From positions 945,787-1,009,786 of the forward strand of contig NMRA01000100.1 in NCBI GenBank assembly GCA_002633005.1: DNA of 64,000 bases, in the 5' to 3' direction. Below, piece by piece: positions 3,874 to 15,800 of this stretch (the first letter of the stretch is position 1; each line of letters opens with the position of its first letter). The position numbers and the translations under genes were made by a program. The notes under the pieces are model-generated. The model did no database searches, was not told where the DNA came from, and saw nothing but the letters and a program-made list of their open reading frames with translations. This DNA is from Phoronis australis. Lineage: Eukaryota; Animalia; Phoronida.

Positions 3874-6800
3874 GTTCGTTATTCGCCACCAGGGGGGTAT
3901 CATTTAATCAAAGGTTGTCATTTGTAGCAAAAATTATTGTCTTTGATTTTTACAGGCACAAACTTAATTGAAGCGGTTTATGGTTATAGTCCATGTGTGT
4001 GAAGTCTGATTATGGAACAGTTGACATCAGTTCCCATGTTTTGATCTTACAGCATCACGTTTTTATTTATGTGCCTATGACTGTCTTTTGTTCTCTTTTC
4101 CTGGTAAATTTAGGTATTGAACTTGATGTTCAGTGAGTCTACACTCAACTGAAAGTGAAAACGGTCATTCAAATCAGTATTGTATGTGTGGCGCAGTGCT
4201 CACATTCGTTATTTATAATGAAATATTTTGAAGTAAAATGTTTTGTCCACTATCTCGCAGTATTAAAAGTAATGTTACGTTTTCTTTTTTCTAGAAATTG
4301 TTGATGGAAATGTGAAAATGACTCTTGGTATGATCTGGACCATTATCTTAAGGTTTGCCATTCAAGACATCTCAGTTGAAGGTAAAAGCTCAGATCCACT
4401 GTTGAGCACTGTTTTAATTTTATCTCTTTCTTTCAAAAGATGATTCTGAAATGTGATTTTTCAAATTGTTATAGTACTAAAGATGTTTCACTTCGCAACA
4501 TCTCACTTGATTTCTTCTATTCATATTCTTATCATAGCAATTTGTCTAGTTTCAATAAGATTGTCTGCTTTTCTCGTCGTTACAACTTTGCACATTTCAT
4601 TATGCAAGACACTTGTGACAAATTTCGACTTACGGAACGGAAACAGTGAAAATTATCCCATAATTTAACATTCCAATTTGTCCGACCAATCTCTTCGACC
4701 AATCTCATTTAATTAGTGCATGGGAGTAAGGCTTACTTTTGAAACATTCACCTTTCACTCGAATCGTGTTGTGTGATTTTGCACACTTTTGCCAAAGTCT
4801 AAAAAAACATTCTGTGGAACGCACCCCTGGTTCAGCTGAAAGTCGTTCAAAAGTGCATACTCTCACATGAGGTCTAGAGGCCTCAGTCTTGTTGGTTCAT
4901 GTGTGTGTCCTCTCTTTACTGACTTACCACTGTCAGGTGGATAGAATTGGGATGAAAATTCACCTTTATTATCGTATAAATTGTCCATTAGTCAGCTTTA
5001 CGCAAAAGAGTTGCTAGCGTCTGATCTACCACCACATTGTAGCCGTCCAGACTTACCAAGTTTTAACATTGTTCTCTTTGTTGCTGGGAGCACAAGCTGG
5101 TTTTTGCTTAATTCATGTGTTGGCTTGGTACGATATATGAACCCCAATACAGCAGCATGCAGTTTGAAAAAAAAGTGGATAGATTAAAGAAACAAAAATT
5201 CATGTTGACAGCTTCAATGTATATAACAGTCACTTGTTGCTTTTGCGTCGTTTCAATGTTAATTAGAGTAGGATTTGCCGGATTGCACCTATGGGAGAGA
5301 TTTTTTGTGTGTGTGCGCCTAGTAGACGGTATTTTGTGTACTGCACCGTCTGTTGGTGTATTGTGGAACTAACTCTGTTGCAGAGCTGACCGCCAAGGAG
5401 GGCTTACTACTGTGGTGCCAACGTAAGACGGCGCCATACAAGAACGTTAATGTACAAAACTTCCATATAAGGTAACACGGTCTCATGTCGACTGAGGTGG
5501 TGTGGCCTACTAATGTCTTTGTAGTCGCTTCTTAACGTCTACGTGCACTGCATGTTGGTCGCTACGGCGACTGTCTCCTTTCACTTTGTGTCTGTTTTGC
5601 TACCGTTTTGTTTTACAGAGCTGTCCGCTAAGGAGGGACTTCTCTTATGGTGCCAACGTAAAACACAACCTTATCGGAATGTTAACGTTAATAATTTCCA
5701 CTTGAGGTAATACACTAACCAATAAGGTAATACTGGGGGGAGGGGGTTGGGGGTGTTAGGGGGAGTGGCTATTGGGGAANAGTGAGTCTACACTCAACTG
5801 AAAGTGAAAACGGTCATTCAAATCAGTATTGTATGTGTGGCGCAGTGCTCACATTCGTTATTTATAATTAAATATTTTGAAGTAAAATGTTTTGTCCATC
5901 ATCTCGCAGTATTAAAAGTAATTTACATTTTCTTTTTTCTAGAAATTGTTGATGGAAATGTGAAAATGACTCTTGGTATGATCTGGACCATTATCTTAAG
6001 GTTTGCCATTCAAGACATCTCAGTTGAAGGTAAAAGCTCAGATCCACTGTTGAGCATTGTTTTAATTTCGTCTCTTTCTTTCAAAAGATGATTCTGAAAT
6101 GTGAGTTTTCAAGTTATTCTAGTACTAAAGATGTTTCACTTCGCAACATCTCACTTGATTTCTTCTGTTCATATTCTTATCATAGCAGTTTGTCTAGTTT
6201 TAATAAGATTGTCTGCTGTTCTCGTTGTTACAACTTTGCACATTTCATTATGCAAGACACTTGTGACAAATTTCGACTTACGGAACGGAAACAGTGAAAC
6301 TTTTCTCATAATTTAACATTCCAATTTGTCCGACCAATCTCTTTGGCCAATCTCGTTGGTGGCGGCCATTTTATTAGTGCATGGGAGTAAGGCTTACTCA
6401 TTAAACACTCACCTTTCACTCGAATCATGTTGTGTGATCTTACACACTTTTGCCAAAGTCTAAAAAAAAACATTCTGTGGAACGCACCCCTGGTTCAGCT
6501 GAAAGTCGTTCAAAAGTGCATAATCTCACATGAGGTCTAGAGGCCTCAGTCTTGTTGGTTCACGTGTGTGTCCTCTCTGTACTGACTTACCATTGTCAGG
6601 TGGATAGAATTGGGATGAAAATTCACCTTTATTATCGTATAAATTGTCCATTAGTCAGCTTTACACAAAAGAGTTGCTAGCGTCTGGTCTACCACCACAT
6701 TATAGCCCTCCAGACTTACCAAGTTTTAACATTGTTCTCTTTGTTGCTGGGAGCACAAGCTGGTTTTTGCTTAATTCATGTGTTGGCTTGGTACGATATA

Positions 6801-12800: not shown

Positions 12801-15800
12801 TTTATATATGCAGTGATTTTAAAATTTGTATATATTCTGGCCAAAAACAAAATGTTTTTTTCCTTTGTTGAAGTGAATTTCTTGTAAGCTAGGGTGCATT
12901 TGTAACAGTTATTTAGATTGTGAATGGACGAGTCTTCAAATAAGAAACAGTGCTAGAACTTCAAAACGTTTCCCAAAACTTTCATTGTTTGATGTTCTGC
13001 ATGTCTCAGTCATTTCGTTCTTACAGTGAATTTCCAAAAATAGGCCCATGGGCGGATATTTGGAAAACGACCTTTCAAATACGTCACATAAAACCGGAAA
13101 TTCACCAAGACATATACTAGGAAACTTTGGGCATACTTTTGGAAAGCCCGCGTGTGTACTTTGGGGTGGGCGTGTTTTTGGAAATTCCTGGTAATAGAAA
13201 TGACTGAATGCATAGTTGGACATGCCGAAACTTGTTGGAAAGTTTGCTGCATTATGGATGGCTTAAATCTTAAACTGCGTATGCTGTTTGGCTTTTAGAA
13301 GTCTAGTTAGCAAATAGCTGTTTTTAGAAGTACTCTCATGGTATTTGTTACGTTAGTTTTAGTATTTTAAGTTTCTTGTTTCATAACAGTGGTTTTGTTA
13401 AGTGATAACGGTTGTGTAAATAAATTGTAGGATAATCCTTTGGAAAACCTGAATACAGCATTCAACGTTGCTGAGAAGCATCTGGATATTCCGAAGATGT
13501 TGGATCCCCAGGGTAACGTTCTTGTTTCTCTCTTTCTAACTGTCCTTGACCCAATTGTAGGATAACCCCTGGGAGAACTTGAACACGGCTTTCGACGTGG
13601 CTGAGAAACACTTGGATATTCCCAAGATGTTGGACCCCGAGGGTAACTGAGCATGTCTAGTGTGCATGCCACGTGGGGGCACCAGTGCTGGTGATGAAAG
13701 CTCCCACACAGGGTGCTACTAATTGCATGGAGTGCACTGTTGGTATTACCTAGTTTGCGGTCTATGCAAATGAGTATGAAATGACTTCACCGTGAACTGT
13801 TTGGGTATGCAAATGGAGTTTGCAACAACTATTGGTTTTATCTTCTGCATCTGTGGCATTCATTGAGTAGTTCACATTAGAGGGAAGGTATGACATTTCG
13901 TTTCAGATTAAATTATCATTTTTGGCAAGAAAAATGGTTTTCTGAGATCAGCCCCAGTGTGTGGTCAAAACTGCAGCGGCCACACTCCAACGCTTCGCGT
14001 GCACAACTAAACCCCTCTCCATTAGTGGCAGAGTATTTTAAGCGTATTTAAGCGGTGATGTCACCTGTCTAGATTTCAGGAATTGCTGGTGAGAATTGGG
14101 GATTGGTAATAAAATCACATTGGATTTGTTGTTTTATAGCTTAGACATCTAATAAACTCAAGAAGTCTATCCCATCCAAAAACGATTTCAAAAAATTTTT
14201 TCGGTCTTTTAACTGACTATGTCCCTTGAATCCGCTAAAGTTTGCAAGGAAGTTTTTAATCTTCAAGATTTAGTTCTGTATCCCTTAGCTACCAAAAGAG
14301 CTCATCCATGACTTTGTGTAGTTTCAATAAACTTATTTCAATGTCCTTCACTCACCGCATGTGAATTAACTTTTAATCTCCTTTCGGTCGCTGTTAACTG
14401 AACTAATGTCTGTATCTTCTTGTTCCAGTTAAACTCAAATTGCTTAAGTCGTTTTTATGAAAGTTGATGGAGAAACTAATCAAAATTGGGCAATGATGCA
14501 TGTTAAGGAAAGTCATGTTATCTGCTCACTGCTTCCCTTTCTGTACTTATATATTACTATTGTTATTATTGGGATCGTTTGATTCAGCTGTTCAATTAAT
14601 TATAACACTAGCATGGAATGGCAGTCCTCTGCTGTTTTGTGGAAAATATTTCTATGAGCATTTTCGAATTAATGTTTTGTAGCTGTCATATTCATCTTAA
14701 TTTTCAAGTTTGCCTTAGCTGAATGTCCGTAAGACGTGTTAGCTGCAATTTATTGTACACGTGTGATAAGTGTACAGCTTTTGCTGAATTGACAACGTCG
14801 ATAATTCTGTACTGCCATGACGTACTATCGCAATGAAATATACCCAGAAGCAGCTCAACGTCACTTAAACAAATTTTAGAACTAACAAACATACACGTGC
14901 ACAGAATTGAGCAAAAGTGAACGCGTACGAAAAAAAGTAAAGATGGCTGGCGAACTGTCTTTATCCTTATTCCTCTACTTTGAGTCATGTTCCTACAGTA
15001 TAAGTGTAAAGTATTCGGACGAAGTGACCCGAAATTCTTCGCCATAACGGCTGGGCAGAATTCCAAATCATGGTCAGAGTATTCTTCCTGATGACTGAGA
15101 ATGAAGAAGAATTAACTATAAAGTTAGCAAGGTGGCTCCGCCAGTCTGCAATAAGAATTTTACCCCTGTAATACGTATTTCCAACCATTTTTGTTGGTCT
15201 CGAAATTAGCCGTCATGATGGGTGAACAGTATTATGTCTGATTACTTTCGTCTCGTATTGTATATACAGTTCTGGTCATCTGCTCTGTAGTATCTCTTGC
15301 TTTCAATTCGGCTCTTTACTTTATTTGGTGTTCACTTTTTTCCTTTTCTTATTCAGGAAGTAGGGGCACAACATTCATTTCAGACGGTTTTTGTCTTCTA
15401 ACTGGGCTGAAACTATAGAGATAGTATTGAACAAGTTAGATTATGTGTACTAAAAGGAGTGATAGTATCTTCATTAATCAATTGGTGAGGCATAGCAAGT
15501 GGCTGAGGAACAAGTAAGTAAAATAATGGAAGGTGACAATGTCCATCAACAAATATATTAGCATTGTGCGAGTAAGAATTAGACAAGAAATCAATAGAAT
15601 ATAACAAAGCGGCTATTAGTTATGGCGTGCTCTGTAAGCGTCATCATCATCTGACATGATCAAATGTACAAATAACTTGGACATAATCTGTCGACAGACA
15701 TGGTCAACTCGGCCAAGCCTGATGAACGGTCGGTAATGACGTACGTGTCTGCCTACTACCACGCCTTCTCTGGAGCTCAGAAGGCGGAGATGGCTGCCCA

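Follow-up and report, generated by a model that had tools for sequence, protein, structure and literature searches.

Three consecutive duplicated exon pairs in a lophotrochozoan alpha-actinin gene and the layered signals that may keep their use exclusive

In alpha-tropomyosin, the branch point that keeps two neighboring exons apart lies about 42 nucleotides (nt) from the donor. Rat alpha-tropomyosin exons 2/3 and vertebrate OGDH exons 4a/4b are both tandem duplicated exons with a branch consensus close to the upstream donor and a pyrimidine tract behind it; the OGDH branch adenines are reported at 25-41 nt from the donor (PMC7969005), and mammalian extracts, as described in PMC6692369, require the branch site to lie about 50 nt from the donor, with a distance of 35 nt abolishing assembly. 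In Caenorhabditis elegans, the egl-15 5B/5A and let-2 9/10 pairs are separated by introns shorter than the others of the gene and are controlled by RBFOX and STAR (ASD-2) proteins, and the exclusivity of exons 4a/4b of the alpha-actinin gene atn-1 depends partly on nonsense-mediated decay (NMD), according to PMC4165533. Among 629 human exon clusters, 57 (9%) are reported to fit steric interference and 377 (60%) to have frameshifting lengths (PMC5740500). Tandem duplicated substitution exons are also familiar from the alpha-actinin family itself, as the vertebrate EF-hand exons 19a/b and as actin-binding-domain pairs in fly Actn and worm atn-1, and such duplications are described as recurring across phyla (PMC4550062; PMC9741552). 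Here we analyze an alpha-actinin gene in 64,000 nt of DNA from the phoronid Phoronis australis (contig NMRA01000100.1; this whole stretch is called the window), which differs from these relatives in that three consecutive exons of the actin-binding domain are duplicated (5a/5b, 6a/6b and 7a/7b), whereas exon 8 is a single copy fused to exon 9 and tblastn with the Owenia protein revealed no additional EF-hand exon in the gene. The literature searched yielded no paper on these three exons, and Lek et al. 2010, a survey of duplicated actinin exons in invertebrates, may already list the exon-6 pair.

The gene occupies the forward strand from about 3639 to about 41443, as located by tblastn with the Owenia protein P0122 (the first exon was not located), and its exons are numbered by what we take to be their analogy with human ACTN. 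Exons 5a (5384-5471) and 5b (5619-5706) are 88 nt long, exons 6a (10766-10844) and 6b (11247-11325) are 79 nt long and end in Arg and Lys, respectively, and exons 7a (13431-13512) and 7b (13561-13642) are 82 nt long. Both copies of each pair are old and under purifying selection: they are in equal phase with intact splice sites, share 62 of 88, 61 of 79 and 66 of 82 bases in pairs 5, 6 and 7, and differ by synonymous and non-synonymous proportions (pS and pN) of 0.92 and 0.137, 0.61 and 0.107, and 0.85 and 0.046, respectively. Because all six exons are of length 3n+1, double inclusion shifts the frame; joining the a to the b copy in any of the three pairs produces a stop inside the second copy, and retention of the intron between 7a and 7b also leads to a stop. 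One copy per pair in each message is thus the likely outcome predicted from the sequence, and we infer a mutually exclusive use of the pairs in RNA. Annotated proteins of Owenia, Lingula, bivalves, gastropods and Octopus include isoforms that each contain just one of the two exon-6 types, and only three protein entries, all of them gene models, carry both.

The reading that we favor, with modest confidence, is a layered exclusivity whose branching adenosines, binding proteins, spliceosome size limit and NMD we infer. Rbfox-type and possibly Quaking-type splicing factors, suggested by their motifs, would pick the a or the b copy; an intron of 48 nt, likely too short to splice, would prevent the joining of 7a to 7b; a near-donor branch point would possibly do the same for 5a and 5b; the choice between 6a and 6b would be regulated through an Rbfox-type site, likely without a lock; and decay of the frameshifted messages would serve as a backstop for all three pairs. 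An earlier note on this DNA had proposed instead that all three pairs are locked by a branch point placed too close to the upstream donor. Its positions for the three introns, their motifs and an AG-free zone are exact. As to the lock itself, the proposal likely holds for 7a/7b, in the form of a very short intron rather than a distant branch point, is plausible for 5a/5b, and is doubtful for 6a/6b. A tropomyosin- or OGDH-like working is left to pair 5 at best and a worm-like short-intron working to pair 7, whereas pair 6 fails on the AG zone, on the presence of an alternative branch site and on conservation. Moreover, the branch points of tropomyosin and OGDH have been mapped and precede a long AG-free zone, while the sites in the window are candidates by sequence, in a layout that is not conserved in the relatives compared.

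These relatives come from a pattern scan of metagenome contigs, which returned at least 126 stretches with a pattern that favors invertebrate-type exons; 123 loci were analyzed, and the counts of loci below refer to the matches listed. In each of the three a-b introns of the window, the top match to U2 is the motif pointed out before, with its adenosine at bases 42, 42 and 27, in every case less than about 50 nt from the upstream donor, a threshold that stems from mammalian work and may differ in this animal. The gene's 25,496 intronic nt contain 33 sequences with at most one mismatch to TACTAAC, or about 0.057 per 45 positions, and at this rate the chance of two near-donor matches is about 0.003. 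A near-donor match is present in 3/3 a-b introns (trivially so in 7a-7b), in 1/15 other introns of the gene, two introns broken by haplotype overlaps being left out of these counts, and in 6/82 control introns of other loci.

A steric lock, in the form of a too-short intron, is quite probable at 7a/7b. The intervening intron (13513-13560) measures 48 nt, as against 175-8,341 nt in 15 other measured introns of the gene. Its branch candidate TTCTAAC (13534-13540, A13539 at base 27) and an alternative, CCTTGAC (A at base 37), both fall under the steric limit, so that of the three pairs only this one lacks a usable site beyond that limit, and there is no AG between the candidate and the acceptor. 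The resemblance to egl-15 and let-2 is incomplete, as the worm introns are shorter than 40 nt and flanked by exons of length 3n, whereas here the intron has 48 nt and the exons are 3n+1. The minimum intron of C. elegans is given as about 40 nt (PMC4165533), and the literature searched yielded nothing on minimal intron size for this lineage. Weighing against a strict size barrier, constitutive introns of 49-56 nt are present in compact-genome loci that group with rotifers, and 48 nt is therefore no absolute barrier in animals. Two copies of exon 7 were seen in none of the 45 loci, partly redundant, that span exons 6-8. Past the 7b donor, three GCATG and one ACTAAT lie within 90 nt (13651-13729, forward strand).

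At 5a/5b we regard a steric lock as evenly balanced between true and false. The intron (5472-5618, 147 nt) contains TACTAAT at 5508-5514, its best U2 match, with the candidate branch adenosine A5513 at base 42, followed by an AG-free zone of 92 nt (5525-5616). The last AG upstream of this zone ends at 5524, 11 nt past A5513, and none follows; by the rule reported in PMC1431707, that scanning can bypass AGs within 12-15 nt of a branch point, the intron has the uninterrupted zone expected of a distant branch point, and a base-42 motif at the 5' end of such a zone is the textbook layout. The same zone, however, holds a second branch candidate, TCTTAAC (5530-5536, A5535 at base 64), which lies past the mammalian steric limit and would be usable, along with TGCATG at 5549-5554. 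The zone is the second longest among 18 introns, and one constitutive intron of the gene has a zone of 99 nt. Folding of the 5a-5b intron is no more stable than that of its shuffled versions (z -0.77). Over 600 nt around 5a-5b, the two likely haplotype copies of this region (described below) are identical, as against 42 differences in the preceding stretch; this is the longest identical run in eight overlaps, the next being 252 nt, which suggests constraint, although shared ancestry of the haplotypes could also explain it. Two exon 5 copies were found in 1/49 loci spanning exons 4-6, namely L008, the nearest relative with this pair, whose 5a-5b intron of 415 nt combines an ordinary branch site at -33 with a motif at base 55 that is no more than weak; it aligns with the intron of the window no better than chance (112/300 shuffles were as good).

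Exon 5 also bears on function. By alignment offsets it spans a loop of human ACTN2 to which phosphatidylinositol 4,5-bisphosphate (PIP2) binding has been mapped, including the positions R163 and R169 of the described PIP2 platform (PMC4259493), and at the R169 position 5a has Lys and 5b has Arg, so lipids may regulate the 5a and 5b isoforms differently. In its tail, 5a agrees with human ACTN4, with Lys at this position, and 5b has Arg as in ACTN3; over exon 5b, identity with an Amphimedon protein reaches 96%. The exon-5 pattern had no match in prokaryote genomes or viral contigs. A second donor-like sequence, AAG/GTAATA, occurs at 5727 (and at 7390 in the repeat of this region), 20 nt past the 5b donor, and its use would shift the frame.

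The pair 6a/6b presents a different picture, and a steric lock there is doubtful. Its intron (10845-11246, 402 nt) contains CACTAAC at 10881-10887, with the candidate A10886 at base 42, and the pyrimidine tract that the earlier note saw behind it is real, with pyrimidines making up 77% of 30 nt. From base 42 to the 6b acceptor, however, there are 11 AGs, including three YAG, where a distant branch point would call for an AG-free zone. The true AG-free zone of this intron is 48 nt long, and at its edge sits GACTGAC (11183-11189), a proximal branch-point candidate with A11188 at base 344, 58 nt from the acceptor and far beyond the steric limit. Exon 6 is present in two copies in eight other non-redundant loci (L008, L015, L017, L018, L050, L063, L076 and L100/101, the last covered for just 300 nt at each intron end; L019, L051, L110 and L102/103 were dropped as duplicates), always an Arg-ending copy followed by a Lys-ending copy and with matching codon use. 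In all eight, the first 60 nt past the 6a donor lack a near-perfect branch motif; one of them has a weak YTRAY at base 38. The donor-to-branch spacing that was expected to be kept in orthologous introns is thus found in 0/8 exon-6 and 0/1 exon-5 orthologues, and because the orthologues do without one, 6a/6b probably requires no lock.

What these loci do share is a motif in front of 6b. The 100 nt preceding 6b contain GCATG in 8/8 other loci, at -11 to -42 in seven of them, and the window has GCACG at 11224-11228, at -23, a sequence described as a variant primary Rbfox motif (bioRxiv 10.1101/840272), so that GCAYG precedes 6b in 9/9 loci with the pair. By comparison, GCATG is found before 6a in 0/9 loci and before single-copy exon 6 in 1/14 de-duplicated controls. 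In 2,000 shuffles, GCATG preceded 6b in a mean of 0.8 and at most 4 loci, never reaching eight; the 3' flanks before 6b show no mutual alignment among the loci (L100/101 not included). Fox-1 proteins are reported to repress from upstream intronic sites and to regulate the vertebrate actinin non-muscle/smooth-muscle (NM/SM) pair (PMC2777236), and the conserved (U)GCAUG, a predicted Rbfox site, lies upstream of 6b, the exon presumed to be repressed. The choice between 6a and 6b is therefore likely to be regulated through this conserved Rbfox-type site. Several points temper this view: GCATG also follows 6b in 4/9 loci, 5/14 single-copy controls score once GCACG is allowed, and the motif was spotted by eye in the same loci, which are related, before it was counted.

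One challenge to layered exclusivity comes from the regularity of the motifs themselves. The best U2 match falls exactly at base 42 in both of the longer a-b introns, a coincidence with a chance of about 0.003 that favors a uniform steric lock, in which all b exons branch less than 50 nt from the a donor and, at 6b, an RNA hairpin shortens the path and hides the AGs. A long hairpin of 164 nt is indeed predicted at 10998-11161 on the forward strand (folding z -3.78, 0/200 shuffles) and forms in 999/1,000 structures sampled for the exon-intron-exon region; within it lie 9/11 AGs, including all three YAG, which keeps the steric reading alive at 6a/6b. In the yeast introns of COF1 and UBC13, a stem that separates a distant branch point from the acceptor is reported to mask AGs in the same way (PMC3239191), although those are probed stems in constitutive introns, whereas the hairpin of the window is a prediction in an alternative animal intron. 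The 92-nt AG-free zone of 5a-5b also speaks for this model. Against it, two AAG remain outside the hairpin (base 130 predicted unpaired, base 352 partly so), the fold of the whole 6a-6b intron is unremarkable (z -1.05), 3/65 control segments fold better than the hairpin, and the hairpin segment was selected once its fold had been seen. The proximal GACTGAC and the base-64 TCTTAAC are also available as ordinary branch sites, the layout is absent from all eight exon-6 orthologues and from the single exon-5 orthologue, and the AG-free zone carries less weight given the 99-nt zone of a constitutive intron and the estimate in PMC1431707 that about half of human 100-nt zones arise by chance. We consider a uniform lock unlikely. 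The evolutionary version of this model, in which a new physical lock (a base-42 branch point, 360 nt from the acceptor, with its AGs hidden by the hairpin) would have been added in one lineage to an ancient Rbfox-regulated pair, so that with locks at 5 and 7 all three pairs would be sterically forced, is likewise improbable. If it were true, the second calponin-homology domain, with its phosphoinositide-binding loop, could exist in as many as eight versions. No second copy of the hairpin, which may or may not derive from a transposon, is present within the window, and the 25 longest of 99 inverted repeats gave no convincing docker/selector pairing.

The two base-42 motifs are at the same time ACTAAY sites at +38, and ACTAAY is described as a QKI site (PMC3559881). 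Since ACTAAY also follows b-copy donors, these motifs have a second reading and may be Quaking-type sites. Taken to its conclusion, Quaking/STAR proteins would tune the choice together with Rbfox, branching would take place elsewhere, and pairs 5 and 6 would be exclusive by regulation and NMD alone. ACTAAY is found within 100 nt past 4/6 alternative donors (5a, 5b, 6a and 7b) against 0/14 constitutive donors (Fisher p 0.003), and two of the four are b copies with no need for a lock; one of these, ACTAAC at 5714-5719, 8 nt past the 5b donor and scored on the identical second copy, can have no a-b steric role because it sits after the b copy. L008 has a perfect TACTAAC 32 nt past 6b, again a b copy needing no a-b lock, and in C. 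elegans ASD-2, acting from the downstream intron, is reported to drive the choice of let-2 exons (PMC4165533). The counts are small, though, both base-42 motifs have a pyrimidine tract directly behind them, as a branch point would, and ACTAAY follows 6a in just 1/9 loci; since branch and Quaking roles do not exclude each other, Quaking-type sites could equally operate within layered exclusivity. Taken as a whole, this explanation appears to us unlikely. Very improbable is the remaining view, that the pairs are not true alternatives, each containing a copy that is either a defunct duplicate or a product of the assembly. Several haplotype overlaps do exist in the window, and the window's own 5b, 6a, 7a and 7b signatures were found in 0/402 fetched proteins. 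Between the copies, however, 16-26 nt differ, and synonymous change is near saturation while non-synonymous change is low, unlike in the haplotype overlaps, which are 93-97% identical; all six exons have AG/GT ends; and the exon-6 pair recurs with equal order, final residue and similar codons in the eight other loci.

In protein trees, both built with FastTree, the window protein takes a lophotrochozoan position beside Owenia and the loci L008 and L076 (support 0.95; 0.99 with Owenia in the other tree), which speaks against a coral affinity. In the protein comparison its overall identity peaks at 83%, with Lingula and Owenia, and the collections compared thus contain no close relative; protein searches gave a best match of 91% over a conserved exon and 77% over a rod exon. 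As for the assembly, the window contains eight single Ns, and most duplicated stretches adjoin them. The region 4132-5779 is repeated at 5781-7442 on the same strand, with an N at 5780 and 96.7% identity, and the repeat includes exon 4, 5a (7047-7134) and 5b (7282-7369); as similar overlaps repeat rod exons, this duplication is likely two haplotypes left in the assembly. Tandem near-copies, 91-100% identical and mostly beside single Ns, are found at 4132-7442, 20162-22081, 32958-34478, 34477-38883, 43779-44171 and 59361-60167, and all six are likely unmerged haplotypes that would inflate exon counts in any annotation. Other features of the window are a 78-nt tandem repeat and its inverted relative in the same long intron (29251-29797 and 22402-22800), a long inverted repeat in the 6b-7a intron (12485-12830), with 90-nt and 74-nt arms of 78-88% complementarity, that is probably a small transposon, and a 126-codon open frame on the reverse strand (56229-55852) that resembles part of a neighboring gene.

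Exon 8, single in the window, is duplicated in several of the other loci. L068 (forward strand), which groups with arthropods, has a 42-nt intron between exon 8 copies near 10897-11028, next to introns of 65, 69 and 678 nt, and likely represents an independent too-short-intron lock in alpha-actinin. In L005, L013 and L047, of which the latter two group with Brachionus, the introns between exon 8 copies measure 90-120 nt and contain two GCATG each, which suggests a possible Rbfox-type control of this pair. L035 (reverse strand) has three tandem exon 8 copies at oriented positions 10566-12273. Among the proteins, an alpha-actinin-like model of Tubulanus polymorphus (P0002, P0242) contains the whole actin-binding domain twice, a candidate arrangement that may be an assembly effect.

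Steric exclusion, decay after a frameshift and Rbfox control are all known, and the mechanism is not new. The gene nevertheless offers a natural test locus with three pairs per transcript, one of them common to molluscs, brachiopods and annelids without the motif at base 42, one common to a nearer relative, and one seen only here, and it lets one ask directly whether physical locks have been gained on, or lost from, old regulated pairs. Beyond this gene, the presence of GCAYG before 6b in 9/9 loci predicts a lophotrochozoan-wide Rbfox switch in alpha-actinin.

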